Part shown: positions 8,538 to 63,379 of the stretch, in pieces | Layout of the letters: each line of letters starts with the position of its first letter | How positions within the stretch are numbered: the stretch's first letter is position 1 | From: a virus | Taxonomy: Duplodnaviria > Heunggongvirae > Uroviricota > Caudoviricetes | DNA: 64,000 nt | Reading direction: 5' to 3' (one strand) | IMG/VR virus record: IMGVR_UViG_3300022719_000283 | Location: 188,067 to 252,066 of that record | Notes under the pieces: generated by a model | Seen by the model: the letters and a program-made list of their open reading frames with translations, nothing else | Databases searched by the model: none | Told to the model about the DNA's origin: nothing | Program-made: the position numbers and the translations under genes

Positions 8538-8615
8538 CGTAAAAATTCCTCCGGTCCCGAGTAGGGCTCTCTCTGTATTGGAGTGCCCTATAGAGGGATA
8601 ACCGATAGAGCGTTA

Positions 8616-15989: not shown

Positions 15990-17354
15990 TTACGTGGGCT
16001 CCACAACCGACCCAGCACGCCATTCATCCGGCGTGGGCGGTCTCCATGCAGGATCTCGAACCCAGGGGTGATCAGCCCCGTCACCGTGACAAAGTTCAGA
16101 ATCTTCGAGGGACCATGCCGGTCGCCCTTCTCCGCGTTTCTGTCGTTTGAGCGCATACTCAGCTCGAAGAGCCTCTGACCGCGTGAAATAGGGCCCATAT
16201 AATGCACGCGCCACCCACGGACGATGTTTTGCGGTGTACTTCCCACCGCCTTTCAATCCCGGACGCCCATCCGCTCGAAGTCCGTTGTGCTGCCTCAGAC
16301 GGGCCGCCGGGTCCACAGCCATGCCAACGTAGAAAAACCCTGGAAGTTGTTGTCCGCGTTTGCCCACCCGACGTTGCTGGCTCTGAATGACGTAGACCCA
16401 AAAGAGTTTCCGCGGCAGAGTAGGAACCACGGTGTTGAGACATAGAGGGTCCCCCTGCGCCTCTCGAATCAGGGCCGCTTCTTTTTCCAAAGCCTCAAGC
16501 TCATCTCCACACTCGTGTAGAACGGAGAGCTGTGCTTCCTCGAAATCCTTGTCATTCAAGGCTTCGATGTGTTTTTTCTTCTTGGCCTTCGACTTGTGGT
16601 TGTTAAACCGAAGATCGTAGTGACTCGAAGACCCCAGGTAGTAGGTGCTGTCCGCGAACTGAATCTTGTAGACCGCCCACCGGCGCCGGAGTTCACGTTT
16701 TTGTCTGATCAGCTCCTTGTTCCTGGCGTAGTACGCCCGATCCTGGTGTCGATTCTTACGGCGGTACCTTTTGATTTCGTCCTTGTTCTGTGAACGCCAT
16801 CGCTGCTGACGATCCTTCACTTCTTCGGGGTGATTGGCAGCGTACTCCCGGGCAACCTGCCGGCGCTCGTCTGCATGACGAGTGTACGATCGTCGGTTCT
16901 GGACGCGCACCTTCTCCGGATTGCGTTCTTTCCACCCCCGGTTGTAAGCAGCACGCTGTGCCTTCACCTCGGGACGTGCTCGGCGACGAGCACGGTTTTC
17001 TTTCACCTTCTCAGGGTTGGCTTTTCGCCACGCCTGGGTCGTCTCATTCAATCGTTTCCGGTTTGCTTTCCGGTACTCCTGCTGGCACAGCTTGCACCAA
17101 ACCTGAAGACCGTCTTTCCGTGATTGATCCTTTCCAAATGCGGACAAAGGCCGTTCTGACCCGCATTTAGAGCACCTCTTCACCCCACTAAGATAACACG
17201 AAAACGGTGAAATCCAAAGCGGAGGGGTACACCGAACGTCACTACCGATTGAGCAGCCAGTGAAGATGCGGAGCCGCGTAGTAGGCCCACGCATAGTCGG
17301 CGTACCCATGGTTGTCGAACACCGCCTGCGTGGTCTCGGATCCTGCAAGCACAA
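15990..17354 (-). CDS. GIY-YIG homing-endonuclease-like protein with two GIY-YIG modules and basic NPEKV repeats
   Basis: VYKIQFADSTYYLGSS and FWVYVIQSQ...GFFYVGMAVDPAARLRQHN...RSEALRAEYALK are GIY-YIG-type motifs. The repeats AWRKANPEKVKENRARR, GWKERNPEKVRVQNRRS and ANHPEEVKDRQQRWR are typical of phage homing-endonuclease linkers. The true start may lie downstream of 17354. Confidence 0.6.
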   Translation of the reverse strand: MCLQDPRPRRRCSTTMGTPTMRGPTTRLRIFTGCSIGSDVRCTPPLWISPFSCYLSGVKRCSKCGSERPLSAFGKDQSRKDGLQVWCKLCQQEYRKANRKRLNETTQAWRKANPEKVKENRARRRARPEVKAQRAAYNRGWKERNPEKVRVQNRRSYTRHADERRQVAREYAANHPEEVKDRQQRWRSQNKDEIKRYRRKNRHQDRAYYARNKELIRQKRELRRRWAVYKIQFADSTYYLGSSSHYDLRFNNHKSKAKKKKHIEALNDKDFEEAQLSVLHECGDELEALEKEAALIREAQGDPLCLNTVVPTLPRKLFWVYVIQSQQRRVGKRGQQLPGFFYVGMAVDPAARLRQHNGLRADGRPGLKGGGKYTAKHRPWVARALYGPYFTRSEALRAEYALKRQKRGEGRPAWSLEDSELCHGDGADHPWVRDPAWRPPTPDEWRAGSVVEPT

Positions 17355-23876: not shown

Positions 23877-25280
23877 CTAGCTCTTGAAGGTGAGCAGCGG
23901 CCGAAGACGAAGGACCGGGCTTGCAAGTCCTTGCTCTTCTTGGATTTTCACGATGGGATCGATGTCCTTGTAGGCTGCGGGAGCTTCCTCCCAGAGCCGC
24001 TCTTCACGAAGTGTCACGCAGTCCACCCCATCGAGTCCAAGATCGAAATCCGGCCGGCCTTTTCGAGTCATCTCAAACCGGGTCCGAGACCGACCCGCCC
24101 CGTGGGAAGCCGACCGCAAGAAACGGTCGTTCCCCAATCCTCGCATTACGTACGAGGATGTTCCCATGGAGCCGGGAATCAGAACCCACTGTCCTTCCCA
24201 GGCCGGCGTCGCACCCTTGCGATGAACGAAGGCATCGTCTTCGTAGGTCACGATGTTATGGGACACGTCGTAGAAACAGCTCGCATCAACATTTCCGAAA
24301 ACCTGACGAAATCGGTAACGCACCATCGTGGAGAGAAGGGCACGGTTCACAGCAGCGAAGTTAGCCGCACATCCCATGGCAAGCATGTACTCGTGGGCGT
24401 CCTCATTGTAGAGCGGGAACACTTCCGGCCACTTGAGCCCTTTCGGCCACTTTTTCTTCGCAATCTCTTGGAACCGTGTACCGATCCCCTTCCCCACCGA
24501 ACGGGAACCTGTGTGAATCATGAACACGATGTCTCCGTACTTCAGGTTGGGCCAGGTCCATTGGAGAGCCTCGTAATCAAGAACCTCTTCGACCATCTGG
24601 ATTTCGACGAAATGGTTCCCTCCTCCGACCGTCCCCAGGTCTGGGTCTCGGATCACGTCCCTGCTGTAGTCGATCCGGTCTTGAACCCACTTGGTGTCGG
24701 ACACGAAAGACCCCTGGTGCCAGATGTACTTGGCATCAAGGGCCAAGTGATCCTTGGCGCGAGCCATCAATCCCATCGGGTTCTTATAGAGCTCCTGTTC
24801 CCAACCATAGGCCCCGTGCTCGTAGATCGCGTGCAGGGTGGACGGAGTCATCGGAAGGTCCCGGGTCCCCAGCAAAAGATCACCGCGAAGTAGCTCCACG
24901 AGCTCGTCCTTGCGAGCGAGGAATTGGTCGACCGTTACGTCGATCAGATCCAAACGCATCCCGCAATTGATGTCCGTCCCGATGGCCTGCGGAATCACCA
25001 TGTCGGCCGTTGCCACAACGCATCCGACAGGAACGATGTTGCCAGGATGAAAGTCGGGAGTGGCACAGGCTTGACACACGTGGCCGCCACTTGGGTGGGA
25101 AGCCGAGGCAAATGACACGAGCTGTTTCACCGCTTTGGTCTCGAGCGGGGAGCCTTCGGGCAAAAGAATCTCAGCCGCCGGGCCTTCGTGAGAGGCGCGA
25201 CGAACCTTGTAAACAGGACCGTCTTGAGAAATCTCGATGCCTTCACGCAGGAGGGCTCGAGCCAGTCGTTTGAATTTCAT
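23877..25280 (-). CDS. rtcB: RNA ligase RtcB (3'-phosphate/5'-hydroxyl RNA ligase)
   Basis: GTVGGGNHFVEIQ, HTGSRSVGKGIG, IPGSMG and SHGAGR are RtcB active-site signatures. The start is set at the internal MKFKRL (residue 50 of the 516-aa ORF) to drop an implausible N-terminal extension. Confidence 0.85.
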   Translation of the reverse strand: MKFKRLARALLREGIEISQDGPVYKVRRASHEGPAAEILLPEGSPLETKAVKQLVSFASASHPSGGHVCQACATPDFHPGNIVPVGCVVATADMVIPQAIGTDINCGMRLDLIDVTVDQFLARKDELVELLRGDLLLGTRDLPMTPSTLHAIYEHGAYGWEQELYKNPMGLMARAKDHLALDAKYIWHQGSFVSDTKWVQDRIDYSRDVIRDPDLGTVGGGNHFVEIQMVEEVLDYEALQWTWPNLKYGDIVFMIHTGSRSVGKGIGTRFQEIAKKKWPKGLKWPEVFPLYNEDAHEYMLAMGCAANFAAVNRALLSTMVRYRFRQVFGNVDASCFYDVSHNIVTYEDDAFVHRKGATPAWEGQWVLIPGSMGTSSYVMRGLGNDRFLRSASHGAGRSRTRFEMTRKGRPDFDLGLDGVDCVTLREERLWEEAPAAYKDIDPIVKIQEEQGLASPVLRLRPLLTFKS

Positions 25281-25429
25281 GATGCTGAACTCCAGTGAAC
25301 CTCTCTCAACCGCGCGGGAGAGAGGCTCGGAAAGGGTCTGGTTGTTCAGCAGCCGCGGCAGTGCGCGGACAGCTCCTTGTAACCCAAGACCCGAAGAAGT
25401 GCAAGCGGGGCTGCCGGTAAGGTGCATGC

Positions 25430-26074
25430 GTGGCCGTCGTCCTTCCCGGCAAGTTCATCTTCCTGGCCCATCCTCACACCGGATCCAGCGCCATGGTCCT
25501 GGCCCTCCAAGACGTGTTCCCGGAAACATTCGATTTACGACCCCACCACATGCGCCTCACCGATGTTCGAAGTCATCAGGGAGGGGTAAGGATCACACAA
25601 ATCAGCCGGATACGTCAGCGTGTTTGGGATGAACGTCCGCACAAACGGATGCGAGATTCCGACGTGGATCCGGAGATGGTGCGGGCAGCTATCCAGGGAA
25701 CTGAGCGCATCTTCACGATCATCCGCAACCCTTACGACTTTCTGGTGACCTGCTACGTGCGCCGAGGACGGGATGCTTCCTTCGAAAAGTTTGTCCAGAG
25801 CTACAACGAGCCACCCTATATCGTGGACGGCCGGCTGTACTACCACGAACCCGACTGCGAGACCGTTTTACGTTGGGAAAAGCTTCAGGTCCAGCTCAAC
25901 AAGCTCATGCGGGAACTGAAGCTCCCCAAGGTCGAGCTCGGGAAACACAACGTCACGAAGGACAAGAAGCCTTGGGAAAGCTACTACACCCCCAAGGCTT
26001 TCGAAATCGTGAACGCACGGTTCAGAAAAGAGTTCGAACCATTCTACGAGCCCCGCAAGTCCGGTGCAGGATAG
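25430..26074 (+). CDS. Sulfotransferase-family protein
   Basis: The N-terminal P-loop-like LAHPHTGSS corresponds to the 5'-PSB PKSGTT motif. IRNPYDFLVTCY matches the 3'-PB motif R[ND]PxDxxVSxY. It is on the plus strand and overlaps the 3' end of the Tpt1 gene by 31 nt in convergent orientation. Confidence 0.5.
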   Translation: MAVVLPGKFIFLAHPHTGSSAMVLALQDVFPETFDLRPHHMRLTDVRSHQGGVRITQISRIRQRVWDERPHKRMRDSDVDPEMVRAAIQGTERIFTIIRNPYDFLVTCYVRRGRDASFEKFVQSYNEPPYIVDGRLYYHEPDCETVLRWEKLQVQLNKLMRELKLPKVELGKHNVTKDKKPWESYYTPKAFEIVNARFRKEFEPFYEPRKSGAG

Positions 26075-26658
26075 ATCCCCTTGCCGATCGAATTGTAACG
26101 ACGGTCCTCTGGCCAGAGCAGAAACTCGATGGGCACGTGATCCGTATACCAGACTCCGTTACCAGTCAGGTAAAACTTGTGCCCCTCATCGTGCATGACC
26201 TTGGCTCGGACCTTGATGATGATCGGACGACCCCGCCGCTCACCCACGCGAATGGCAGTCTCGTAGTCAGGGGATAGATGGACCGCATGACGATTCATCT
26301 TGAGTAGGCCCTCTTCTCGGATCGCAGGTACGAACCTCTCCGGAGTCCCGTGGTACAGACACTCCGGAGGCTCCCTCTCTTCGTATCCGAGGTCCACCGG
26401 AACGGAGTGTCCTTGTCGGGCGCGGATTCGTTCCCCGTCTTCGCTGAGTTCAAACCGTTTCTTGTCGTTGGTGTCGACGACTTCTTGCAGGAGCTCTCGG
26501 GTGAGTCCTCGAGCCCGTTTCTGATCGACAGAGCGCTTGAGTAGCTCATCCACATCGGCCCATCCGGCGTTGTCCAGCTCGATGCCGATTTTGCCCGGGT
26601 TGTGCCGGAGCACCAAGCTCAGGAACTTCGAATAGTTCTTCAGCTTTCGTTCTTCCAT
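26044..26658 (-). CDS. kptA: RNA 2'-phosphotransferase Tpt1/KptA
   Basis: SKFLSLVLRHNPGKIGIELDNAGWADVDEL, RFELSEDGERIRARQGHS, LYHGT and HAVHLS match the conserved Tpt1/KptA blocks. Confidence 0.85.
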   Translation of the reverse strand: MEERKLKNYSKFLSLVLRHNPGKIGIELDNAGWADVDELLKRSVDQKRARGLTRELLQEVVDTNDKKRFELSEDGERIRARQGHSVPVDLGYEEREPPECLYHGTPERFVPAIREEGLLKMNRHAVHLSPDYETAIRVGERRGRPIIIKVRAKVMHDEGHKFYLTGNGVWYTDHVPIEFLLWPEDRRYNSIGKGIYPAPDLRGS

Positions 26659-35504: not shown

Positions 35505-36272
35505 ATGGTCGACTCCGAAAAGCTCCGCGTTCTCATCGCTGAGGACAACCCAGGGGATGTTGCAATCTTAGAGCATATTCTGGCGGGGTTGAATACAGAA
35601 TTGCGGCATACGAGATCGCTCAAGCAGCTCCGTGAAGACGGCCACATTTGGGACCCAGACGTGGTCCTGCTCGACCTTCATCTTGAGGACAGCCAGGACT
35701 TCATGGTGACGGCACGGACCGTAGTCAGTCTCTTCCCTACCATTCCCGTCATCGCCGTAACCGGGCTAGATGAAAAAGAGTTCGCCCTCCGAGCGCTTCA
35801 AGCAGGCATCTCCGCGTACCTGATCAAAGGCACGTTGTCAGGGTCTGATCTGATGAAACACATCCACGAGGCCATCGCGCGCAAGAAAGCTCAGTACCGA
35901 TCTCTTACCACAGCCGTCTCACAGGATGAACTACGCGCCATGGTCAAGGAGGCGGTGGAAGAAGCTCTGACCGATGAGCCTGAGCCCCCGACCTCAATGC
36001 GCACCGTGATCCTCGCCGTCTTGGCAATCCTTCTGTTGCTAGGGGGCACCGGTGCATGGGCCTATTTCCAGCTCGCCAAAATCGAAAAGCAACGCAAAGA
36101 GATCCATCGCAAGAGCTCCGAAGATCTTCGGGCCGAGAAGTTCCAAGAGTTCCAAGAGCTCCGTCAGGAGCATATGGACAACCGAAGGCAGTGGGAAACC
36201 GGTGGGGAAGTCGGTCCCAAGCCCAAGAAGCCACCTCGTCTTCTTCAACTCGAACAAGAACTTGCCCAGTAG
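35505..36272 (+). CDS. Response-regulator receiver-domain protein with C-terminal TM helix and coiled-coil
   Basis: RVLIAEDNPGDV...VVLLDLHL...YLIKG gives the receiver-domain Asp and Lys positions. ILAVLAILLLLGG is a TM segment, followed by a charged helical tail. Confidence 0.65.
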   Translation: MVDSEKLRVLIAEDNPGDVAILEHILAGLNTELRHTRSLKQLREDGHIWDPDVVLLDLHLEDSQDFMVTARTVVSLFPTIPVIAVTGLDEKEFALRALQAGISAYLIKGTLSGSDLMKHIHEAIARKKAQYRSLTTAVSQDELRAMVKEAVEEALTDEPEPPTSMRTVILAVLAILLLLGGTGAWAYFQLAKIEKQRKEIHRKSSEDLRAEKFQEFQELRQEHMDNRRQWETGGEVGPKPKKPPRLLQLEQELAQ

Positions 36273-36274
36273 CC

Positions 36275-37444
36275 ATGTCCGACCATTACCTCAAAGCTGA
36301 GCTCTATGATCGACTTAGCTCCGACCCCACCCTCTTCGAATGGCTTGAGGCCGGGAGCTTAGACGGTGTCTGGTTTCTCAACGTCGAAAACTTCATCGAC
36401 CAATGGTATTCGCCACGGTTCAAGAGACTTTTCGGCTACGAAGATCACGAGATCCCCAACACATTCCAGTGGTGGCAAGAAAACATCTTCCCCGAAGACA
36501 AACAACTTGCTCTGGACAGCTACTACAAACACCTCGAGAACCCCGAAAAGTTCCCCTACGACCAAATCGTCCGATACCGACACAAGAACGGCTCCACTGT
36601 CTGGGTTCGTTGTCGTGGGCTTGTTTTGAAGGAGAAAGGCAAGCCTGTGCGTATGCTAGGAGCCCACACCGACATCACTCCCATCAAGAAGGCTGAAATC
36701 GAAGCAGGCCAGCGAATTGAGGAACTTGAGACCCTGTCCGCTGCTCTTCAACGTTCCAACTACGAACTCGAGCAGTTCGCCTACCTAGCAAGCCACGATC
36801 TACAAGAACCACTGCGCATGGTGGCATCCTTCGCCAAGATGATCGACGACACGTATGGCGAAACGGGAGCCCCTCTTGATGAGCGTGGGCGCCAATGGCT
36901 CGGGTACCTGGTCGAAGGGGCAAGTCGGATGCAGATACTCATCAACAGCTTGCTCTCCTTGAGTCGGATCAAGGAACAGGTAGAGGAGATGGCATCCATC
37001 GACATGGAACAGATCATGGAAGAGATTGTCACCGATCTCGGTATCCGTATCATCGAGAAGAACGCCAAGATCCTCACCGGAGACCTACCGTCTTTTATGG
37101 GGGTACGCAGCCAAGTACGACAGGTGTTTCAAAACCTCATCTCTAATACACTTAAGTTCCATGGCGACAAGCCACCAGTGGTTCGCATCCGTGGGGACGA
37201 ACTCGATGATGGGATGGTGCGCTACACGGTTCATGATGAAGGCATCGGGATCCTCCCTTATGACGCGGGCAAGATCTTCGAGGCGTTCTATCGAGGGAAA
37301 GAAACGCAAGACATTTCGGGAAGTGGTATCGGGCTTTCCATTTGCAAAAAGATCGTCACATTACACGGCGGCACTATCCGATGCGAATCGGAACTCGGCG
37401 TGGGAACGACTTTCATCGTTACGTTCAAGGGAACAGGAAAATGA
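36275..37444 (+). CDS. Sensor histidine kinase (PAS - HisKA - HATPase_c)
   Basis: H-box LASHDLQEPLR. G-boxes HDEGIGI and GSGIGLSICKKIV. An N-terminal PAS-like segment. The start is set at the ATG just after the stop of the response-regulator gene, not at 36056 inside that gene. Confidence 0.8.
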   Translation: MSDHYLKAELYDRLSSDPTLFEWLEAGSLDGVWFLNVENFIDQWYSPRFKRLFGYEDHEIPNTFQWWQENIFPEDKQLALDSYYKHLENPEKFPYDQIVRYRHKNGSTVWVRCRGLVLKEKGKPVRMLGAHTDITPIKKAEIEAGQRIEELETLSAALQRSNYELEQFAYLASHDLQEPLRMVASFAKMIDDTYGETGAPLDERGRQWLGYLVEGASRMQILINSLLSLSRIKEQVEEMASIDMEQIMEEIVTDLGIRIIEKNAKILTGDLPSFMGVRSQVRQVFQNLISNTLKFHGDKPPVVRIRGDELDDGMVRYTVHDEGIGILPYDAGKIFEAFYRGKETQDISGSGIGLSICKKIVTLHGGTIRCESELGVGTTFIVTFKGTGK

Positions 37445-39224: not shown

Positions 39225-40667
39225 CTAGGTAATCCTAGGTGACTCGGATTCGAGGCTGTGCCGACCTCTCCTCGGGGGAGATGCTCCGGTAGTAAGCCTC
39301 CGGCCTGACGGTTCAGGCGCGGGGGGTGCCTTTCGGCAGAGTCCCGCGGGACTGGTCCTCGATCCCCTTCGGAGATCTCGGAATCGCGCTCGCAGCAACT
39401 CCCTCACGTCTCGATGGTGATCTCCAAGACCAACCTGTTCATCCTCGGAACGTCCGAGCAGATTGATCCCTCCCACCACATCAGCGTGAGACCGCCTGCC
39501 GCATGAGCGACAGACGAAATTAACTCCTGATCGGTTCCGTCGTGAGACGTAACCACAGGAAGGACAAGTCTGGGACGTGTACGCCGGATTCGCCTTGATG
39601 GTCGGCGCCTTCGTCTCCAAACTGTGGGCTAGAGCCCTGTAAGCAAATCTCTTCTGCCCTCGACAACCTCGGAGGTCGAGGTCTTCGACCACGAACACCG
39701 TGCCCTTGGGGGCATCACGAACGAGCTTGTTCGCTACCTCTCCAGTGATCGTTTTCACCATCCCCGTGAGTTTCGACTCTAAGCGGTCGAGCCTGGGGCT
39801 GTTCTCCTTCAAACCCTGTCGTTGGCGGTTGGCCCGGAGACTCCTGACGCGCTCGTAGAGCCGGTCGAACTTGGGCTTGAGTTCGGCACCAAAGGTTCGG
39901 CCGTCCGACGTGGCAGCCACCACGTTCAGGCCAACATCAACACCGATTCTGGGAGCGTCAGGTTGGGGTTCGGGGACAACCCATTCCTTCTTCTCGACCG
40001 TCTCAAACCTCCAACGTCCCCTCTTGTCCTTGCGAGCGTGAATCCCTTTCGACACGTCGGATGCGGACTTGACGTAGGGGTTCCCACACAACGGGAGCCA
40101 GATGACTTTCCTGGAGACCAAGGTGGAGATCTTGATCCACATGGGCGCCACCACGGCTTCGTCGGCGTCGGTCAACGTGCAGGTGTTCTCCGACAACCGC
40201 ATCGGGATGCGTTCGGACACCTTTGGTGGATTGCCGGAGATCTCGGTATCGAGGAGGATCGCCCAATAGGCGTTGATGGCCTCCTGAGTGACGTGTTTCC
40301 AGGGCTCTGATATCAGGTGCTTGCCGACCGTGCAGAGGGCGTATCGTTCCTCTTGGGAGATTCCCCCGAACCTGTGGAGACGAGTGATGTACTTCTTGAG
40401 GGCGCGCTCGTAGGTAGCCTTGGCCCATGTGGAGACGATTTGGATGGCGTGGTCGCGTGCGTTCTTTTGAATCTGGGAAGTGAGCCCCTCGGCTTTCGGG
40501 AAGAACGCCTGTTTCTCCGACCGCTTAAGGTTCAGGCGGTGGTTGTCGAGCATGTGCTGCACGCAGATGCGGACGTAGGACACGTACTCGACGTGTAACG
40601 CCTCCAAGGCGGCGACCTTGCCCGGATTGGTCTCCGAGTGGAGGTAGAGGTGTCGTGACTTCTTCAT
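39225..40667 (-). CDS. tnpB: TnpB (OMEGA / RuvC-like RNA-guided nuclease), IS605/IS607 OrfB family
   Basis: RuvC-I IGVDVGLN, RuvC-II VFVVEDL, zinc finger CPSCG...CRSCG, RuvC-III HADVVGGINLL. The C-terminal tail probably reads through the omega-RNA region. Confidence 0.8.
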   Translation of the reverse strand: MKKSRHLYLHSETNPGKVAALEALHVEYVSYVRICVQHMLDNHRLNLKRSEKQAFFPKAEGLTSQIQKNARDHAIQIVSTWAKATYERALKKYITRLHRFGGISQEERYALCTVGKHLISEPWKHVTQEAINAYWAILLDTEISGNPPKVSERIPMRLSENTCTLTDADEAVVAPMWIKISTLVSRKVIWLPLCGNPYVKSASDVSKGIHARKDKRGRWRFETVEKKEWVVPEPQPDAPRIGVDVGLNVVAATSDGRTFGAELKPKFDRLYERVRSLRANRQRQGLKENSPRLDRLESKLTGMVKTITGEVANKLVRDAPKGTVFVVEDLDLRGCRGQKRFAYRALAHSLETKAPTIKANPAYTSQTCPSCGYVSRRNRSGVNFVCRSCGRRSHADVVGGINLLGRSEDEQVGLGDHHRDVRELLRARFRDLRRGSRTSPAGLCRKAPPAPEPSGRRLTTGASPPRRGRHSLESESPRIT

Positions 40668-54938: not shown

Positions 54939-55598
54939 TCATCGACGACCGTGCGGCAGTAAACTCCCAATCCCAGTTTCCGCCTCCCACGCCTCGGAGA
55001 ACTCCCGGTCCCGGAACGCCTCAGCCAGCCCCGTGATCTGCTTGAGTCTAAGAACCTCATCCGGGTCCATCCCGAGCTCCTCGCTGATCCTCTCGTTGGT
55101 CCAGTGGTGCTTCGTCAGGGACGTGACGAGCTTCGCGCTGAGCTCGACTTGGTGCGTGCCTCGCGCCATGTTGTGGCGCACCGTGGAGGTCATGCGATCC
55201 TCGATCGACTTCTCCAGCTCCACCAGAGGCACATACCCGGCCAGGCTCTCCTGCACCTCCTCGCACGTCTGGATGACCGTGGTCCGGTGAAAACCGTCCA
55301 CGACGACATGCTTCTCGAGACCCTCGTCGTAGGCCGCCACCACGGGCATCGTCATTCCATCCTTCCGGATCGAGAACTCCAAGAGACGCATCTCCGGAGG
55401 AGCGACCACGTTGGGGTTGTAGTCGTTCCCCTTCACCTGGTCGGCCTTCACGAGTTTCACGCCGGTGACCGGGTGCGGGAGACCCAAGAAGTCCTTCATC
55501 GTCTGAGAGACCTCGTTGAAGATCTCCACACGCTCGTCCACGTTCAGGTCTCCGCACTCCTTGAGAAGGGCGCGAAGTTTCTCAGCTACGTTGCTCAT
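54939..55598 (-). CDS. ParB/Srx-like nuclease-domain protein (IbrB-like)
   Basis: DYNPNVVAPPE...VVVDGFHR resembles the ParB N-terminal domain (DGHHR/GxxR region). It is paired and slightly overlapping with a PAPS-reductase-like gene, as in IbrA/IbrB. Confidence 0.45.
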   Translation of the reverse strand: MSNVAEKLRALLKECGDLNVDERVEIFNEVSQTMKDFLGLPHPVTGVKLVKADQVKGNDYNPNVVAPPEMRLLEFSIRKDGMTMPVVAAYDEGLEKHVVVDGFHRTTVIQTCEEVQESLAGYVPLVELEKSIEDRMTSTVRHNMARGTHQVELSAKLVTSLTKHHWTNERISEELGMDPDEVLRLKQITGLAEAFRDREFSEAWEAETGIGSLLPHGRR

Positions 55599-56886
55599 GT
55601 TCCTCCGAGAAGCTCGCTATCAGGGCGAGCTGCCTGCTCATCTCACGCTTCGTTTGACTGAAACTCAAACCCTTTGCCCAGTAATCGTTCTTCAGAAGGA
55701 CCTTCACGATCCTGCGCCACGAGGGAACCTTCCTCTGAGACTCCATCTTGGGGTCCGCCTCATCGGGAATCGGCGGGTAGGAGACCCCCAGCTTCTTCTC
55801 GCCATTCGCGTACCACCACGCGAGGAACTTGTCGATCTTCTCGCGGTAGTGGGCGGCGAGATAGGGAGGCATCGTGTCCAGAAGGAAGTTGGCGTAGCTC
55901 TCGTAGGTGTGGCCGGGAGGAAGAGACACCTTGAAGTTGCCGAACACAGTACCTCTGGTCTTGCTGTACCGGCACCCGAAATTCGCCCCCTCGACACGCG
56001 TCACCACGCGAATCCACGTCTCCGGCTCGAGAAGTCGGAAAAGGTAGAGACCCTTGCGCTGGTCGTCTCCGTACGGCTGACACAGCCGCTGCTGCGAGAG
56101 GGGGACACCGGCGAGGTGCATGAGATCGTAGATCTCGTTGTAGTCCCACCCGAACTTTCCGTTGGCCGTCCAGACGTCCTCCGTCCTCCAGTCGTAGATG
56201 GGGAAGGCGGTGTAAGTGTCCCTCGTCTGCCGGGTGGTCCACGGGCGCCCTCCGAGCGTCTCCTTGCGATCGTTGATGAGCGTCCGGAACCGGTTGAGGC
56301 TCTCGTCGCTCCGGATGCCCACCAAGCAGCATGTCCTGCGCCCGTCGGCGATCCACTCCCCGAACTCCGGGACGAAGTCCTCGAACTCCATGCCCCTGTA
56401 GAAGAAAGGATAGTGCGTCTCGCTCGAGACGACCCCGGGAGCCTCGGGCATCGGCCGCACCCACGCGTCCTTCTTGTCCGGATTCCAGCACAGCCAGTGC
56501 GGTTGAACCTGGCTCACAGCATTGCGGAGGTGCAAGGGGAGACACACCCAGTGGGGGCGTACCTCGGGCCGGGCAAGTGTCCTCTCCACGTACCGGATGG
56601 TGTGGGCGTACTGGGCCTCGAGGTCCACAAGAAGCACGTCGAGGGGGAGCCGGCCGCGCTCCCGGGCAACCTCGACGGCGAGGTTGAGGAGAACCCCGGA
56701 GTCCTTTCCCCCGGAGAACGAGAGGTACACGTGCTCGAACTCATCGAACACCTCGTGCAGGCGCTCCACGGCCGCGTCGTAAACACTTTTCCCTAGCGGT
56801 CTCTTCGGCATCCTCCCACCTTGTACTCCGACGAAGAAAACACGAAGATTATGCCCCCCGCGTCCTCTTGAGCGCCGCACGCTCAC
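55582..56886 (-). CDS. PAPS-reductase / PP-loop ATPase-family protein (IbrA- or DndC-like)
   Basis: YLSFSGGKDSGVLLNL is the PP-loop SGGxDS. Followed by a long C-terminal extension typical of phage PAPS-reductase-like proteins. Confidence 0.7.
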   Translation of the reverse strand: MSVRRSRGRGGHNLRVFFVGVQGGRMPKRPLGKSVYDAAVERLHEVFDEFEHVYLSFSGGKDSGVLLNLAVEVARERGRLPLDVLLVDLEAQYAHTIRYVERTLARPEVRPHWVCLPLHLRNAVSQVQPHWLCWNPDKKDAWVRPMPEAPGVVSSETHYPFFYRGMEFEDFVPEFGEWIADGRRTCCLVGIRSDESLNRFRTLINDRKETLGGRPWTTRQTRDTYTAFPIYDWRTEDVWTANGKFGWDYNEIYDLMHLAGVPLSQQRLCQPYGDDQRKGLYLFRLLEPETWIRVVTRVEGANFGCRYSKTRGTVFGNFKVSLPPGHTYESYANFLLDTMPPYLAAHYREKIDKFLAWWYANGEKKLGVSYPPIPDEADPKMESQRKVPSWRRIVKVLLKNDYWAKGLSFSQTKREMSRQLALIASFSEEHEQRS

Positions 56887-58054
56887 TTTTGGAGATTGCA
56901 GTAATCCCGTACTTCTTTCGTCGAGACCGGATCGGCATTTTACTTACGCCGTAGAGGTCTCCGATCTCCGTGTCGGTGAGAAGCTCCTTTTGGTAGAGAC
57001 GGGCGAGCTCCTCCCCCGTCAAGGTCGAGAGCCGGAGACCTCCCTCCTGCCGCCGTTCTTTTCGTTCTTGATTAGAGACCGACGGGATGCCCCACTTCCT
57101 CCGAACACGCGCCACCGCAGCTCCATCGAAAGGAGGGTCTACACCCGCCTCCCGAGACAATAAAAGCGCAATTTCCCCGTCTGTCTTCAGTTCCCCTTCG
57201 TATAGGTCCCTGAGTAGGTCCGGGGTCAGCAAAGAAATGAGTTCTCCTCTGCGCGCACTGCCTCTTGCGGACCCGGGACGGCGAACCCCCAGCCGAGGCT
57301 GAGGCAGTTTAGCCCCCATGCAAACGGGCATGTGCTCTCGGACGAGAGCGAAAAAGCGATCATCTTGCCCAGAAAAGGTGAGGCTTTTAGCGCCATTGCC
57401 CGGGTGAACCGTTGCGCTCAGATCCAAAGCCTCAAGCGCCTCCAAAGCCCGCTCCAAACTAAGGTTATCGAGCCCGAAGGTGATCCTCGGGTAGTACCGG
57501 TTCATGATCCCCCCATCATCCATGTACCACACCGCAAGTACAAAGGGGTCTATGATCTCAGGCAGCGTAGCCGGAAACACACGATGCCCGGAGGTGTAAA
57601 AAAGATCGTAAAAAGGACGAAGCCTTGTTGTCGAAACCGTGGCAAAGTTCCAAGCGTGGAACTCCCGACCGTCCTCCCCTCGCTTCGTAGAAGGATAGCG
57701 CGACGAAACGTAAGGACCCAAGAGGTCCGCTTTCCAGTCCGTATACTCTCGCTGTTTTAGGGAGTGTCCCTCCGAAAAACGTGCGGTGGTCGGACTGGGG
57801 GCTGACATGCTCCCATCCCCCAAAAGGGACCCGATGATGAGGCTTCTCTGTCTTGACGAAAGCTCGTCAAGTTGCTTTTCAATCCGCCCCGTCTTACCCA
57901 AATTCTCCAGCCCGTGTCGCGCCTTGAACCGGTTCACAGCCACTTGGTAAGTCCCGTATCGCTCGGCGATCTGGGACTCTGTCAGGAGCTCATCGTAGTA
58001 AAGTCGTTGAAAGTCTTCGACCGTAAGGTCTTCAATAGGCACGGTGCCTATCAT
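56849..58054 (-). CDS. LAGLIDADG homing endonuclease (two motifs, monomeric type) with flanking HTH modules
   Basis: LIIGSLLGDGS and LAVWYMDDGG are the two LAGLIDADG motifs. HTH-like LYYDELLTESQIAERYG (N-terminus) and LYQKELLTDTEIGDLYG (C-terminus). Confidence 0.8.
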   Translation of the reverse strand: MIGTVPIEDLTVEDFQRLYYDELLTESQIAERYGTYQVAVNRFKARHGLENLGKTGRIEKQLDELSSRQRSLIIGSLLGDGSMSAPSPTTARFSEGHSLKQREYTDWKADLLGPYVSSRYPSTKRGEDGREFHAWNFATVSTTRLRPFYDLFYTSGHRVFPATLPEIIDPFVLAVWYMDDGGIMNRYYPRITFGLDNLSLERALEALEALDLSATVHPGNGAKSLTFSGQDDRFFALVREHMPVCMGAKLPQPRLGVRRPGSARGSARRGELISLLTPDLLRDLYEGELKTDGEIALLLSREAGVDPPFDGAAVARVRRKWGIPSVSNQERKERRQEGGLRLSTLTGEELARLYQKELLTDTEIGDLYGVSKMPIRSRRKKYGITAISKSERAALKRTRGA

Positions 58055-58096
58055 ACCCTATCTGAAAACATACGCAAACAGTCGGGTAGTTTCTTC

Positions 58097-59068
58097 TTAG
58101 GACTCATATTGCGGGTTTCCTTTGGCCCGGAGGTGCTCAATGCCATGCCTTCGAAGATGGCGGTCGATCGTCGAAGCCCCAACTCCAAGGATCTTCCCCA
58201 TACGTCGAAGAGGAACTCCGTCGGCCGCCAACTCACGCAGGGCAACTGGGTCTAGCCTTTCCTTGATCCGGTTGTTTCGACCACTGTTGTAGCCAAAACC
58301 GCTGAGTTTGTGTCTCATGCACTCGGGGACGTGAGGCGTGATGATTTCCAAGAAGCGACCGGCCGTGTCTTCCCTCTCCATGTGAAAAGCCCCAGTCTCA
58401 CGTCCGTCCTTCTCTTTAACAGGCTGCCACCTGGGGCTAAGTTTGAACCTTTCAAAGATGGCCCACGCGATCTTTCGGCTCTCGGCAGTCCCTCCGAACG
58501 TGATGTCTGGCCACCAGCAAACACACCCGTCATCGAGATACCAGAGGGCAAGAGCGAGATCGTCCACATGGTCCACGATCTCTGGAGACAGAATTTTCCA
58601 TCCCTTATATCGACTCTCGTAAAACAGGCGTTGCCACTTGTTGAGACTTGGATGGGCGACCGTGTTGAAGCGCCATGCTCGGTAGTTTTTACCCCTCACG
58701 GTCTTGTCATTGTACTGAGGCTCAGACTGAACCCAAGGACCCCACCTCCGCATCTTCCAGTCGAGGTAGGGTCTCTGCTCATCACTATGGCGCTCGGTGT
58801 AGTGGGTCGCGTTGGTGCGGTGGACGAGTCTCCCGTCGCCCAGCATAGAGCCCACAAGAAGGGACTTGAGGCACCCCTCAATGGGCGGTACGTCATGACG
58901 CTCCCACCTCTGAAGCGTGCGGATGCCAAAGCGCTTGCGCCACGTCCGGACGCGCTTGGCGGTAGTTTCCTTTCCGATGCGGACCGCGATCTCTTCGTCG
59001 GTGAGCTTCTCGACGAGATAAAGCTGCTCAAGTTCAGACTTGCTGACGGGACAGAGGATCGACCTCAC
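58097..59068 (-). CDS. LAGLIDADG homing endonuclease (second of three)
   Basis: LLVGSMLGDG and LALWYLDDG motifs. HTH-like modules at both ends. Confidence 0.8.
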   Translation of the reverse strand: MRSILCPVSKSELEQLYLVEKLTDEEIAVRIGKETTAKRVRTWRKRFGIRTLQRWERHDVPPIEGCLKSLLVGSMLGDGRLVHRTNATHYTERHSDEQRPYLDWKMRRWGPWVQSEPQYNDKTVRGKNYRAWRFNTVAHPSLNKWQRLFYESRYKGWKILSPEIVDHVDDLALALWYLDDGCVCWWPDITFGGTAESRKIAWAIFERFKLSPRWQPVKEKDGRETGAFHMEREDTAGRFLEIITPHVPECMRHKLSGFGYNSGRNNRIKERLDPVALRELAADGVPLRRMGKILGVGASTIDRHLRRHGIEHLRAKGNPQYES

Positions 59069-59081
59069 CGAAAAACGCTCC

Positions 59082-59963
59082 TTACACCTTAACCAGTTTG
59101 CGCCTCATTGAGGGAAGAATGTGGGGGGCCACGATCGGCCAGAACTTCTCAGGTTCCATCACTCGCAGGTGCCACTCCTTGGCATACCTCCTGGCCGAAA
59201 ACTCCAAACTGAAAATCTCAGACACCACAGGCGCGATAGGCTCAAGATCAATCTGAAGCCCCACATGAAACACAGCCGTGTTTCGGTTCTTTGAGCCATC
59301 GCCCATGTACCACACAGCGAGAGCCAGAGGAGTCAGCCTCTCCGCCGTCCGGGGAGTCAAAGTCTTGTGCCCCTTCCCACTCGGGTAAAACTCGCGCCGC
59401 CATGAGGAGAGCGCGCGACAGCTCCACGTTCCCATCGAGCAGACGCCAAGCTTCTCGAGTTCTCGCACCCTTGAGGTGAGAGGCGAAAACTCGCAAGCCT
59501 TCCACTCCACGAACTCCTTCTGAGCGGTCGAGTGTCCACAGTGGTAGTAAGCGCTGCGGTCCGAAGTTCCCCAAAGACCCCCATCCCCGAACATCTCGCC
59601 GAGCAGTACCTCCTCTTGACGACCCGTGAGGCGGTAACCTGCAACCCACTCCGGAGGCGACGGACGATATTCCGGCCACTGGTACCCATTGCGACGCAGG
59701 AGACGTGCTACCGAGGTGCGGTTGATTCCCATGTCGCTGGCAACAGCGGTCATGGTCTCGCCGTTTTCTAGACGCCTCACGATCTGGATGCACTGGTCCG
59801 GATCGAGTCCCTTCTTGTTCGTCTTCGACGGGATACCATGTCTCCTGCGCCACTCTCGGAGACGACTACGACCTACTCGGAGCATCCTCGCCACCTCGTA
59901 GTCGTTGAACCCCTCCACGAGGAACATGTGACGCAGTTGATCGTCGTCGAGTTCGACGCTCAC
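59082..59963 (-). CDS. LAGLIDADG homing endonuclease (third of three)
   Basis: LLGEMFGDGGL and LAVWYMGDGS motifs. N-terminal HTH-like modules. Confidence 0.8.
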   Translation of the reverse strand: MSVELDDDQLRHMFLVEGFNDYEVARMLRVGRSRLREWRRRHGIPSKTNKKGLDPDQCIQIVRRLENGETMTAVASDMGINRTSVARLLRRNGYQWPEYRPSPPEWVAGYRLTGRQEEVLLGEMFGDGGLWGTSDRSAYYHCGHSTAQKEFVEWKACEFSPLTSRVRELEKLGVCSMGTWSCRALSSWRREFYPSGKGHKTLTPRTAERLTPLALAVWYMGDGSKNRNTAVFHVGLQIDLEPIAPVVSEIFSLEFSARRYAKEWHLRVMEPEKFWPIVAPHILPSMRRKLVKV

Positions 59964-60095: not shown

Positions 60096-60974
60096 CTAAC
60101 GGGTGACGGTGAGGCGCGTGAGGCCGCGGGGGTTGTAAGCCCCGATGCCGAGGTTCTCGAAGACCGAGAACCCGATGGTGCGCGCCTTGGGATCGTCCGC
60201 GGACAGGACCGTGAGCTCCGTGCGAACAGGGATGCGGCCAAACATCTCTGGCTCGCAGCACACGTAGACCGTGCCGGCGGGCACGATGCGGCTCGTGATG
60301 ACCTGGGCACCCCAGAGGGTAGCCTGAAGGCCGGTCTTGAGCAGCGTCGCCTGGCTCTCGATGTCCAGGATGTCCCGACCGAACTTGCGGATGTCGGCGT
60401 AGTCCCTGGCATTCATGTACACGCGCGCGACCCGGAGGTCGTGGCGCTCGATGAGAGCGAAGGCGTCGGCCAGCACAGCACCCGAGATCGGAGCGACCAC
60501 GGGAATGTCCGGGTTGAGACCACCGGGCAACGAATCGAAGCCGTTGGTGGCGATGGCATCCAGAACAGCGAAGACACGCTCGTCCTCGGCGGCCTGGATC
60601 TGCGCACGGGCAAGATCCTGGGCACGCTCGATGAGGTCGAAACGACGCTCCTTGATCTGGGTGAGCGGGATCTCGGGGTTCGAGGCAATCTCGAACAGCG
60701 GGAAGATCACACGACGCGGCTTGGTGACCGCGATGATGTTCTCGCCCTCTTCACCGACCACGTAGGCGGTGACATCGGGATCCTTGTCGTAGATCGGCAG
60801 GGCACCATCGGGAAGCTGCTCGACCAAGAAGGTCTTGCGGCCAACCGAAGTGTAGTCCCGTCGAGTACGAAGGGGTTGGGTGAGAGAAGCTGCGAGCTTG
60901 GCACGACCGGTTGGGGTCTTGATGTACTCGGAGATCAGCTTCTGCTTGACTGCGTTGGAAACACCAGTGGGCAT
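60096..60974 (-). CDS. HK97-fold major-capsid-protein-like (292 aa)
   Basis: Position: downstream of an acidic scaffold-like gene and a decoration-like gene. Size and composition fit. A conserved ILDIE...GLQATLWG region is present. No search was run, so the call is moderate. Confidence 0.5.
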   Translation of the reverse strand: MPTGVSNAVKQKLISEYIKTPTGRAKLAASLTQPLRTRRDYTSVGRKTFLVEQLPDGALPIYDKDPDVTAYVVGEEGENIIAVTKPRRVIFPLFEIASNPEIPLTQIKERRFDLIERAQDLARAQIQAAEDERVFAVLDAIATNGFDSLPGGLNPDIPVVAPISGAVLADAFALIERHDLRVARVYMNARDYADIRKFGRDILDIESQATLLKTGLQATLWGAQVITSRIVPAGTVYVCCEPEMFGRIPVRTELTVLSADDPKARTIGFSVFENLGIGAYNPRGLTRLTVTR

Positions 60975-61840: not shown

Positions 61841-63379
61841 TCAACGAGTCGGGGTGACTCCGAAGACCGACGAAACGTCGGGAGCGGACGCCCACAGTTT
61901 CGAGAGTTGGTCCATCTCATCGCCCGCGACCTTGGTCTGAGGAGCGACGTTGCCGAGACGCTGAGCGCCTTGGCTGGCGGCCTTCTGCTGAGGCTTGAGC
62001 TCGATGTTCTCGTCTCCAGCCTTCTTCTTGCCGCTCTCCTTCTCCTTGGGCGACTCTTCTTCACCCTCTTCCTTCGACTTCTCCTCGAGCTCTTCCATCT
62101 CCTCGAGAACGTCGCCGCCACCGATATCCTCGTCCTTGTCGGACTCGGCATCCTGGTCGTCAGCGCCAGTCTTGGGAAGATCGAGGTCCGCATAGAGCTT
62201 CATGAGCTCATCATCGGCGGAAGCCTCCTTCTCAACGAGGCTCAGAGGATCCTCCTCACCAGCAGTGAGTTGGATGTCGTTCTCCGCGGCTCCAGTGTCT
62301 TCGGCCTTCTTGCCATGAGGAGTGGGGTCGGCTTCCTTGTCCGAACCGTCACTCTGCGCGACGACGGGGGTAGGGGCGTATTCGTCGGGATTGACGTTGC
62401 CACCCTCGCCGCTTTGGATGGTAGGTCCCTTGGCGAGGTCCTCGGTGACGTCCTCGACTTCCGAAGCGCCCTTGGACATCTCCTCGTCCATCTCGTCGAG
62501 CATGGCCTTGAGCATGGCCTCTTCCTCGTCGTCCTCCTGGGCCATCTTGTCGCCTTCGGCCTCGTCGTACTCCTTGGTACCTTCCGACTCCTCACCGCGA
62601 TCGAACTCATCCTGCTCTTCGGATTGCTTGTCGCCGTAGCCGTAGTCGGGGGCATTTTGATCGACGCCATCGCCGTCCATGTCTTCGGCCATGAGGTACG
62701 CCATGAGCTCGTTGTCGCTCATGTCTTCCTCATCCCCCTCCCCGCCGAAAAAATGGGTCATAGCCTTGACCAGCTTGTTCATGCCGGACTCGAGCTTGTC
62801 GAGGCGGGCCGTGATCTCGTGGCTGGCCTTCTTGCCTCCCTCGATCTCGACTTCCTCTTCCTCTTCCTCTTCTTCTTCCTCGCCAGCGAGGACCTTGAGG
62901 GTGTTGGCGGTAGCGGAAAGCTGAGCGTCGTCGAGATCCATCAGCTCGAGGGCCTTGTTCTCGACAGCACCCGCATCAGCGCCGGGCATGAGGGCAGAAG
63001 CGATCCGCACGCAGAGGGTTGCGCGCTGTTCGGCCATCTCTTTGAGACTGGCCTGCTTCTTTCCACCACCGCCGCCTTGATCCATCGCCTCCTCGGGGCT
63101 CTCCGGGTCCTTTTGGAACTCGGAGGTAGCCGGGTGAGTGAGTTTGTCCGTCGTCAGGTTGCCGGGCATGGCCGGGGGAGGGGACTCCTCCGACATCGGC
63201 TTGTGGGGGTCCTCCGCCCAAGCGGAGGTGTCACCCTTCTCGTACTTGTCCTGATTGGGATCTTCGTAGTACGCCGGGTGGCTGGGCCCCTCGGTGCGAT
63301 CGACGGCCGGAACTTGAGGCGGCGGGGAAGCCGTCTTGTCCTGCTCGGCCTGCTTCCAAGTCTTGCGTTGACGTGCCAT
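61841..63379 (-). CDS. Very acidic scaffold-like protein (512 aa) with an E10 run
   Basis: Extremely D/E-rich with an EEEEEEEEEE tract. Sits upstream of the capsid module. Confidence 0.5.
   Translation of the reverse strand: MARQRKTWKQAEQDKTASPPPQVPAVDRTEGPSHPAYYEDPNQDKYEKGDTSAWAEDPHKPMSEESPPPAMPGNLTTDKLTHPATSEFQKDPESPEEAMDQGGGGGKKQASLKEMAEQRATLCVRIASALMPGADAGAVENKALELMDLDDAQLSATANTLKVLAGEEEEEEEEEEVEIEGGKKASHEITARLDKLESGMNKLVKAMTHFFGGEGDEEDMSDNELMAYLMAEDMDGDGVDQNAPDYGYGDKQSEEQDEFDRGEESEGTKEYDEAEGDKMAQEDDEEEAMLKAMLDEMDEEMSKGASEVEDVTEDLAKGPTIQSGEGGNVNPDEYAPTPVVAQSDGSDKEADPTPHGKKAEDTGAAENDIQLTAGEEDPLSLVEKEASADDELMKLYADLDLPKTGADDQDAESDKDEDIGGGDVLEEMEELEEKSKEEGEEESPKEKESGKKKAGDENIELKPQQKAASQGAQRLGNVAPQTKVAGDEMDQLSKLWASAPDVSSVFGVTPTR

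Follow-up and report, generated by a model that had tools for sequence, protein, structure and literature searches.

A phage-borne IbrA/IbrB (YbdN/YbdM) two-gene module and its candidate role in ATP-dependent nucleic-acid modification

PAPS-reductase-like ATP pyrophosphatases pair with ParB/Srx proteins in DNA-modification systems, as DndC does with DndB, and the ParB-like DpdB is a further example (PMC12839542). The DndC/DndB arrangement (and those of SspD and BrxP) resembles IbrA/IbrB in that a PAPS-reductase-family ATP pyrophosphatase is likewise combined with a ParB/Srx protein bearing a DGxHR-type motif, and both DndC/DndB and IbrA/IbrB often have an ATPase partner. The closest described counterparts of the locus analyzed here are E. 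coli YbdN/YbdM and ECOR-9 IbrA/IbrB, which have the same domain architectures, gene order, and overlapping coding sequences. IbrAB reportedly activates prophage eib genes, an observation attributed to Sandt et al. 2002, and phage annotations describe the pair as a "co-activator of prophage gene expression". No biochemical work on IbrA, IbrB, YbdN, YbdM, or DUF3440 turned up in the searchable literature, and the "polyvalent proteins" paper makes no mention of the pair. The pair is already known and is annotated in cultured phages, including those of S. thermophilus, E. coli, Lactobacillus, Flavobacterium, Mycobacterium, and Microcystis, although its members are routinely mislabelled as a sulfur-assimilation gene or a partition protein. 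Here, we describe a well-conserved copy within a 64 kb stretch of phage DNA, referred to as the window.

Gene organization and family assignment

Two minus-strand open reading frames (ORFs) were confirmed at 55582-56886 and 54939-55598. The features of the locus are as follows.

55582..56811, minus strand: IbrA/YbdN-type enzyme, 409 aa, with an N-terminal PP-loop ATP-pyrophosphatase domain and a C-terminal helical DUF3440 domain
56812..56886, minus strand: in-frame 5' extension with a GTG at 56886, probably untranslated, overlapping the 3' end of a LAGLIDADG gene
55582..55606, minus strand: IbrA/IbrB junction with a 17-nt overlap; the IbrA stop is the TGA at 55584-55582
54939..55598, minus strand: IbrB/YbdM-type protein, 219 aa, with a predicted ParB/Srx-fold nucleotide-binding domain followed by a near-invariant helix-turn-helix (HTH)

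A preliminary description of this DNA had given the larger gene as 434 aa, which is the length of ORF 55582-56886 if read from the GTG. While the ORF itself stands, this start was dropped in favor of the ATG at window position 56811 because the identical database protein P0121 (409 aa), the gene calls on L008 and L009 (two contigs of the same phage), and the homolog alignments, which start at M26 of the 434-aa ORF, all begin there. The ATG follows the stop of the LAGLIDADG gene upstream by 37 nt, with the purine-rich AAGGTGGGAGG in front of it; the GTG start would run into that gene. The true length of IbrA is most likely 409 aa.

IbrA contains the motif SFSGGKDSG, and its PP-loop domain belongs to the PAPS-reductase-like clade of ATP-pyrophosphatases. 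Both PAPS_reduct (50.3 bits, Pfam gathering cut-off 22.5) and DUF3440 (117.6 bits, cut-off 25) match the protein, which bears out the earlier assignment to this family. The proposed likeness to E. coli IbrAB is also upheld by full-length homology of IbrA to YbdN (39% identity, 393 columns, E 2e-94) and of IbrB to YbdM (43% identity, E 4e-52). The PP-loop S33-G34-G35-K36-D37-S38 (SGGxDS) is intact. Across 115 family representatives, which span identities down to about 30%, residues S33-S38 together with D63, E65, R167, E170, S171, and R174 are at least 93% conserved, and the figure for D207, D212, R242, and R272 is at least 98%. This pattern of PP-loop and polar residue conservation suggests that IbrA catalysis matters. 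The nearest folds to IbrA are FMN adenylyltransferase/FAD synthase, CysD, and the APS/PAPS reductases, all of which transfer AMP or release AMP as a leaving group. Compared to these enzymes (the PAPS domain in the case of FAD synthase), IbrA is only about 13-19% identical and has an extra DUF3440 domain of ~170 residues. No structural match was found for the DUF3440 domain, and thus nothing directly ties this domain to DNA.

The preliminary description had regarded the smaller, overlapping gene as ParB/Srx-like. Here the profile evidence is divided, in that Pfam ParBc (PF02195) has no match in IbrB even at E<=10, and NCBIfam likewise has none. A PDB sequence search with IbrB returned only chance matches to the Cbk1 kinase. 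We nevertheless retain the ParB/Srx assignment because homologs at 63-93% identity bear PF02195 and the NCBI name "IbrB-like", with PF02195 present in many at 61-71%, because phrog_2159 "ParB-like" matches IbrB (E 1.8e-63), and because of the predicted fold. The AF2 model of IbrB (pLDDT 78.7) resembles KorB, Noc, and ParB, with E of 1.7e-7 to 1e-5 for matches over 140-180 columns that span the N-terminal nucleotide-binding domain and HTH of these clamps; for the N-domain, sulfiredoxin and the serine kinases SbnI/SerK are further matches. IbrB has the motifs GNDYNPNxVAPPE, VVDGFHR, and TVRHNxARG, and DGFHR and RHNxARG are common to IbrB and YbdM. In a profile alignment, the invariant DGFHR sits opposite AGERR of Noc (the ParB GERR box). 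The GERRxR (box II) CTP-binding motif of ParB-type clamps is absent from IbrB, which differs from ParB, Noc, and KorB in having DGFHR for GERRxR and RHNxARG for ENLQR, in lacking a C-terminal dimerisation domain, and in always being paired with an enzyme. The HTH is near-invariant from Actinobacteria to Bacteroidota to Desulfovibrio, which argues against recognition of element-specific operators and for a universal substrate.

IbrA, sulfur enzymes, and sulfur chemistry

The preliminary description had further suggested sulfur or thiol chemistry for the pair, and this part of it was not supported. The CysH model PRK02090 scored 16 bits on IbrA (cut-off 154), the CysD model 29 (cut-off 397), and the DndC model TIGR03183 16.3 bits (cut-off 290.4); LarE and related NCBIfam models were also far under their cut-offs. 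The PADLOC matches are short, with those to DndC spanning residues 185-241 only, that to BrxP covering 36 residues (3e-4), and that to SspD covering 48 residues (0.013), and PADLOC does not assign the pair to any known defence system. The ECG[LI]H C-terminal catalytic-Cys motif of CysH is absent from translated IbrA, which instead runs on into DUF3440. IbrA also lacks the conserved cysteines expected of DndC (Fe-S cluster, sulfur relay). C90, C108, and C244 are present and conserved in a close alignment of the window/YbdN-like clade, but E. coli YbdN is without C90, and C108 and C244 are limited to that clade, most members of the wider family having Pro and Ala at these positions. A conserved cysteine pair was therefore rejected as a sign of sulfur relay, since it holds in the close alignment and is lost in the wider family. 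Because none of the 115 diverse representatives' cysteines is invariant, sulfur or thiol chemistry is not a family-wide inference. Sulfur insertion within the window/YbdN-like clade, through C90, C108, and C244, is possible but not favored.

Two readings would place IbrA among the sulfur enzymes. Dnd/Ssp-like phosphorothioation or base thiolation, with the IbrA cysteines carrying persulfide from a host cysteine desulfurase, would account for the clade-level cysteines, for the position of C244 just past PAPS_reduct (judging from the domain limits, the place of the CysH catalytic Cys), and for the weak partial DndC, SspD, and BrxP matches. Given the replacement of C108 and C244 in most of the family, the absence of C90 from YbdN, and the very low TIGR03183 score, we consider this quite improbable; moreover, no equivalents of dndA/D/E or sspA/B/C were found among the genes examined beside the pair, here or in relatives. 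That IbrA is an auxiliary metabolic gene (AMG), a viral CysH (PAPS reductase) boosting host sulfate assimilation, is scarcely credible. The Pfam PAPS_reduct match and the PHROG label "phosphoadenosine phosphosulfate reductase" point that way, and a DUF3440-bearing clade was counted among viral cysH AMGs. Against these stand the PRK02090 score, the complete ATP-type PP-loop (SGGKDS) without an ECGLH-type C-terminal motif, the obligatory ParB-like partner, and the finding of no other sulfur-assimilation gene among the window genes examined. The CysH reading of IbrA fails. A possible tie to a supposed sulfotransferase gene at 25430-26074, which had also been suggested, is likewise unsupported, as the ORF has no Pfam match at E<=10 and no PDB sequence match and is flanked by the RNA-repair genes RtcB and Tpt1/KptA, at a distance of 29 kb from IbrA/IbrB.

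Pairing, co-inheritance, and genomic neighborhood

At the gene junction, a GGAGG (55606-55602) precedes the IbrB ATG (55598) by 3 nt and is contained in the last IbrA codons. Together with the 17-nt overlap, this implies coupled translation, and the arrangement is consistent with translational coupling of IbrA and IbrB as read from the sequence. Overlapping or abutting junctions are found in most related loci and in E. coli ybdN/ybdM. The preliminary description had asked whether the pair co-occurs across phage genomes, and we found IbrA adjoining IbrB in 57/60 viral loci as well as in 51/55 genomic loci. These comprise all the related loci whose upstream sequence is long enough for the comparison. 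Six of the seven partnerless loci run off a contig edge, and the seventh, L069, has only an IbrB fragment. In 56/57 viral loci, IbrA precedes IbrB on a shared strand, with the order reversed in L061. The divergences of the two proteins are tightly correlated (Mantel r 0.89) and nearly equal in the mean (0.385 for IbrA and 0.387 for IbrB). IbrA and IbrB behave as an obligate unit. Partner conservation is essentially absolute, and no profile placed IbrA in a different PP-loop family.

Purifying selection is strong on both genes, with dN/dS of 0.027 for IbrA and 0.044 for IbrB, which indicates that both are functional in this phage. We regard it as nearly certain that the feature is a phage-borne IbrA/IbrB (YbdN/YbdM) two-gene module that is co-inherited and under strong purifying selection. 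By the sequence comparisons, the family matches of both proteins are far above chance. Each has at least 8000 database homologs, and the IbrA family comprises about 2000 clusters at 50% identity. The family is about 60-70% identical between phyla and is found in phages, prophages, and chromosomes, including that of E. coli K-12. Metagenomic phage and bacterial copies (63-93%) are nearer to the present pair than the E. coli proteins are.

The setting is that of a phage, with a major head protein and a scaffold-like protein encoded near IbrA/IbrB. Compared to the IbrA/IbrB of E. coli and of annotated phages, the pair occurs here among structural genes and not beside regulators. In a Microcystis phage, the IbrAB genes are found together with a helicase gene and recombination genes (YqaJ/RecT); they adjoin antirepressors in E. 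coli phage PhiR5_2; and in 16 loci, an Xre-type HTH gene comes after IbrB. A compact SNF2 protein (SNF2-rel_dom + Helicase_C) adjoins IbrA in 54 loci, about half of the related loci, including that of S. thermophilus phage CHPC1148. The SNF2 helicase, a 107-aa protein, and the Xre HTH protein had no match in the 64 kb window by tblastn and hmmsearch.

IbrA/IbrB also turns up repeatedly within type IV-B CRISPR-Cas loci. Among the relatives, L004-7/L012-13, L014, and L072 have IbrAB flanked by Csf genes and a short CysH-like gene, and no csf or CysH-like gene was matched in the window by tblastn with the L004 proteins as query. The type IV-B CysH-like accessory protein is of the same superfamily as IbrA, but it is a separate, single-domain protein of about 230-260 aa.

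Possible roles of the pair

Our tentative proposal is that IbrA and IbrB form a DNA-directed complex that depends on ATP and adenylylates or otherwise modifies its target. Within such a nucleic-acid-directed, ATP-consuming complex, IbrB would use its ParB/Srx fold and HTH to bind DNA independently of element-specific operators and would position or gate IbrA on it. With its intact PP-loop, IbrA would then split ATP at the alpha-beta phosphate bond and transfer AMP to an oxygen of the target, after which a second group could displace AMP or AMP could stay. The target would most likely be on DNA, and marking of phage DNA could result in protection or altered expression. Where a SNF2 ATPase is encoded directly upstream (about half of loci), it might supply DNA translocation or opening. 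That DNA is the substrate is likely, based on the IbrB fold, the HTH conservation, and the SNF2 and recombination neighbors. Counting against a DNA-modification reading are the failed DndC, SspD, and BrxP models, the failure to find a cysteine desulfurase, SNF2 homolog, or other modification partner among the window genes examined, and the known genetics of the pair, which concerns gene activation. In addition, we know of no modified base in E. coli K-12, which has ybdNM, although this operon is tightly repressed under CitR.

A rival reading is that of a transcriptional co-activator or counter-silencer. IbrB would then be a ParB-like DNA clamp gated by a nucleotide, as KorB is, and would remodel the transcription of phage or prophage genes; IbrA would produce or use up that nucleotide, or license IbrB in some other way, and DNA would receive no covalent mark. 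Structurally, IbrB is best matched by CTP-dependent DNA binders (KorB, Noc, and ParB, HTH included), and the PhiR5_2 antirepressors, the Xre-type genes following IbrB, and the CitR repression of ybdNM would fit a regulator. We nonetheless consider this unlikely, as IbrB has DGFHR in place of the GERRxR nucleotide-binding box and, at 219 aa, no C-terminal dimerisation domain, and a near-invariant HTH across phyla would be unexpected in a site-specific regulator of diverse elements. It also leaves an invariant, energetically costly PP-loop enzyme and its frequent SNF2 partner unexplained. That the two proteins are strictly coupled 1:1 and co-evolve could instead reflect protein-directed modification, whereby IbrA adenylylates, or ligates a small molecule onto, IbrB or a phage or host protein, with IbrB as substrate or adaptor, much as the PP-loop QueC-like Cap9 modifies a CD-NTase; the extreme conservation of the IbrB surface could then mark a protein-protein interface. 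This appears improbable, given that Cap9 is a distant QueC-type relative, that the closest folds to IbrA handle nucleotides and sulfate, and that the SNF2 partner and HTH point to DNA. Many PP-loop enzymes modify RNA or tRNA, such as TilS, TtuA, and ThiI, and IbrA could be of this kind, possibly tied to the RNA-repair genes of this phage. Those genes are 29 kb off, and none of the related loci links them to the pair; IbrA is partnered by a ParB/HTH protein, often joined by a SNF2 dsDNA translocase, and the window has no tRNA genes, which makes an RNA-modifying role very unlikely.

Returning to the DNA-directed complex, it is a more doubtful extension that IbrA-IbrB, with SNF2 in about half of loci, constitutes an undescribed, very widespread, ATP-dependent nucleic-acid marking system of mobile elements that works by non-sulfur adenylylation. 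If true, some type IV-B CRISPR-Cas loci, which have their own unexplained CysH-like enzyme, would have IbrA-IbrB as a functional accessory as well, and many virome "cysH AMG" calls bearing DUF3440 would be misassigned. The size and conservation of the family give an otherwise ordinary pair wider value, and experimental handles are offered by the obligate two-subunit unit, by the SNF2 partner in tractable S. thermophilus phages, and by the link to type IV-B CRISPR-Cas.

Two minor observations concern the immediate surroundings of the pair. IbrA/IbrB lies here behind three homing endonuclease genes within the structural-gene neighborhood, and the IbrA/IbrB locus is a homing-endonuclease hot spot. 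The GC3 of the pair is 0.82-0.83, above that of most neighbors; we did not read this as recent transfer, since it matches the value of the capsid gene (0.81).

Gene structure and identity of the pair

The window contains two minus-strand ORFs that overlap by 17 nt, in agreement with the slightly overlapping pair of the preliminary description.

55582-56886, minus strand: IbrA ORF, long form, 434 aa from a GTG
55582-56811, minus strand: IbrA, preferred form, 409 aa from an internal ATG at 56811
54939-55598, minus strand: IbrB, 219 aa

The 434-aa enzyme reported there exists as an ORF from the GTG, but the true protein is probably 409 aa long. Arguing against the GTG start are the 409-aa length of P0121, a database protein identical to the window IbrA, the gene calls of L008 and L009 (contigs of the same phage), which begin at the ATG at window position 56811, and the IbrA family alignments, which start at the methionine of this codon. 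The internal ATG is located 37 nt past the stop of the upstream gene, after the purine-rich AAGGTGGGAGG. A GGAGG precedes the IbrB ATG within the last IbrA codons, so translation of the two genes is most likely coupled.

The 409-aa IbrA matches Pfam PAPS_reduct (50.3 bits, cut-off 22.5), DUF3440 (117.6 bits, cut-off 25), and phrog_2302 (E 5.9e-92). The 219-aa IbrB matches the PHROG ParB-like family phrog_2159 (1.8e-63), and Pfam and NCBIfam searches with it gave zero matches, even at E<=10; of the profiles named earlier, PAPS_reduct and DUF3440 were found above cut-off and ParBc was not. IbrB homologs number in the thousands at 61-93% identity among the matches listed; many carry ParBc (PF02195), and some are named "IbrB-like domain-containing protein" by NCBI. 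Comparison with ybdN and ybdM of E. coli K-12 (NC_000913.3) revealed full-length homology of IbrA to YbdN (39% identity, E 2e-94) and of IbrB to YbdM (43% identity, E 4e-52). The E. coli genes have the same order as those in the window and likewise overlap. The full-length homology and the family matches therefore bear out the proposed IbrA/IbrB-like identification, and the pair is a real, functional phage module. This kind of pair is already known and annotated, and the window adds one more member: in cultured phages it is labeled "IbrA / IbrB, co-activator of prophage gene expression" or, alternatively, "PAPS reductase" plus "ParB-like partition protein," and IbrA alone matches 138 phage records.

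Co-inheritance and residue conservation

Relatives of IbrB were sought in IMG/VR and in one genome per species, and IbrA was then sought at each locus. The pair was adjacent in 57/60 viral and 51/55 genomic loci, and 56 of the 57 viral pairs have IbrA upstream of IbrB in the same orientation (the order is reversed in L061). Six of the seven partnerless loci end at a contig edge, and L069, the seventh, has no more than an IbrB fragment. Across 93 distinct loci, pairwise divergences of the two proteins were correlated (r 0.89; 0/999 permutations as high) with equal means (0.385 and 0.387), and dN/dS between the window and the related locus L001 was 0.027 for IbrA, 0.044 for IbrB, and 0.071 for the capsid gene. 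Taken together, adjacency, correlated divergence, and low dN/dS mark the pair as an obligate, co-inherited, selected unit.

Structural matches to IbrA are all limited to the ∼165-180 N-terminal residues, and a PDB structure search with DUF3440 gave no relative. Among 115 representatives, down to ∼30% identity, the PP-loop SGGKDS and residues D63, E65, R167, E170, S171, R174, D207, D212, W214, Y228, R242, and R272 are at least 98% conserved, which suggests that the predicted catalysis is under selection. The cysteines behave differently. C108 and C244 appear invariant in the close alignment and are common to YbdN, and these positions are mostly Pro and Ala in the wider family; C90, conserved at 92%, is replaced by Ala in YbdN. 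No cysteine is needed throughout the family.

The AlphaFold2 model of IbrB (pLDDT 78.7) matches KorB, Noc, and ParB (E~1e-7, 140-180 columns) over its ParB/Srx nucleotide-binding domain as well as its HTH, and the N-domain alone gives weaker matches to sulfiredoxin and the serine kinases SbnI/SerK. In profile alignments, the invariant VVDGFHR lies opposite the AGERR box of ParB/Noc, and NDYNPN opposite the NxxxPR box. VVDGFHR in this place puts IbrB in the DGxHR branch of the superfamily rather than among the GERR CTPase clamps; unlike ParB-type clamps, IbrB has no C-terminal dimerization domain. Sequences from Actinobacteria, Bacteroidota, Verrucomicrobia, Desulfovibrionaceae, and Proteobacteria share a nearly identical HTH segment, ELGMDxDEVLRLKQxTGLAEAF.

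Proposed action on DNA and its alternatives

IbrA has an intact ATP-type PP-loop with invariant polar active-site residues, its ParB/Srx and HTH partner is obligatory, and linkage to a dsDNA-translocase-type ATPase is frequent. Our current, tentative hypothesis is that an IbrA-IbrB complex acts on DNA, in which IbrB would bind the DNA and act as the gate, and IbrA would be the adenylylating subunit. Literature searches found no biochemical work on the family, and published accounts treat the genes as regulators or as cysH AMGs (auxiliary metabolic genes). A regulator or clamp is the less likely reading, held at perhaps a minor share of our confidence: a purely regulatory role sits poorly with an HTH that is constant between very different hosts and elements, and an invariant ATP-pyrophosphatase is an odd need for a transcription factor. 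We prefer the DNA-acting complex because of the invariant HTH, the invariant ATP-pyrophosphatase, and the DNA-modification precedents, as the known ParB/Srx partnerships of this enzyme family are in DNA-modification systems (PMC12839542). A DNA mark could also account for the reported gene-activation phenotype.

The preliminary description suggested nucleic-acid sulfur or thiol chemistry, which the data do not support. The lack of a family-wide cysteine weakens a family-wide sulfur relay, and in agreement with this, IbrA scored far below cut-off with the models for CysH (16 versus 154), DndC (16.3 versus 290.4), and CysD (29.4 versus 396.6), while PADLOC gave only short partial matches to DndC, BrxP, and SspD. 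Strict phosphorothioation or thiolation is accordingly improbable, and CysH-type sulfur assimilation, despite the cysH label, is very improbable indeed. Modification of a protein is an unlikely reading, slightly ahead of thiolation, and modification of RNA another, slightly behind it.

Additional partners and genomic surroundings

Side observations that add a little to the pair's interest are an SNF2 partner, type IV-B CRISPR-Cas loci that enclose the pair in relatives, and a concentration of homing endonucleases. Clustering of neighboring ORFs revealed that a compact ∼400-aa SNF2-rel_dom and Helicase_C protein abuts the IbrA start at 40 viral and 14 genomic loci (54 in all), three of which are listed with the embedded pairs.

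L021 3504-4802; L073 3612-4820; L127 2761-3999: SNF2 partner (51 other loci)
L004-L007 (= L012/L013) 4010-9354: type IV-B-embedded pair
L014 1367-6440: type IV-B-embedded pair
L072 3450-6056: type IV-B-embedded pair

The SNF2 partner is also present in S. thermophilus phage CHPC1148, where its gene lies upstream of IbrA and has no annotation. A ∼107-aa protein of no known family lies farther upstream in 24 loci and an Xre-type HTH protein downstream of IbrB in 16; the window holds no homologs of these three proteins, and we found no paper describing the SNF2-IbrA-IbrB unit. The embedded pairs belong to relatives whose IbrB is 66-75% identical. In L004 the genes run Csf1, small subunit, Cas7-like, Csf3, IbrA, IbrB, and a 242-aa CysH-like protein; in L014 IbrA is preceded by genes for a RAMP protein and for a PAPS_reduct protein of 232 aa, and in L072 (a Microbacterium MAG) a 259-aa PAPS_reduct protein comes after IbrB. 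The type IV-B papers checked make no mention of a ParB or IbrAB association, and a 2015 virome paper lists one scaffold with an "IbrA/B CRISPR/Cas system." In Desulfovibrionaceae-type loci (Desulfovibrio/Mailhella-type; L110, L112, L114, L075, L095, L103, and others) and in viral L043 and L054, a ∼450-510-bp spacer with a ∼150-170-aa ORF of no known family parts the two genes.

The window itself is phage-like.

60096-60974: major head protein (phrog_2522, 4.9e-50)
61841-63379: acidic scaffold-like protein
56849-59963, minus strand: three tandem, free-standing LAGLIDADG_2 and HTH homing-endonuclease genes (401, 323, 293 aa)
1879-4308, minus strand: 809-aa protein, four stretches matching homing-endonuclease PHROGs phrog_3339 and phrog_12131
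39225-40667, minus strand: transposase-like gene (phrog_12300/506)
15990-17354, minus strand: endonuclease VII-like protein, 454 aa
17517-18188, minus strand: weak dual-specificity-phosphatase-like match (30.3 bits, under cut-off 33.5)
36056-37444, plus strand: PAS, HisKA, and HATPase_c sensor histidine kinase, 462 aa
23877-25427, minus strand: RtcB ligase
25430-26074, opposite strand to RtcB and Tpt1/KptA: 214-aa ORF
26044-26658, minus strand: Tpt1/KptA RNA 2'-phosphotransferase (4.6e-49)

The LAGLIDADG_2 genes separate IbrA from the major head gene, and they do so in the 93%-identical relatives as well. L011 has two LAGLIDADG genes upstream and a 326-aa zinc-finger (DUF723/DUF4379) ORF between IbrA and IbrB, and in L063-L068 an opposite-strand SegE-like GIY-YIG gene occupies that position. 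The highly conserved locus looks like a homing-endonuclease hot spot. Just past the window end, L008 (525-3392) carries an intein-bearing gene with Hint and LAGLIDADG_3; with the 809-aa protein and the three LAGLIDADG genes, selfish endonucleases are unusually many in this genome. The 214-aa ORF, earlier taken for a sulfotransferase tied to the pair, gave no Pfam match at E<=10 and no PDB sequence match, and it is flanked by RtcB and Tpt1/KptA in an RNA-repair-type module (23877-26658), so that link is not upheld. Most large window ORFs tested had no family match. The window may derive from a very large phage-like element; the biggest contig in the P0121 protein cluster record is 618,736 bp, and the contigs retrieved were 36.8 and 6.3 kb.
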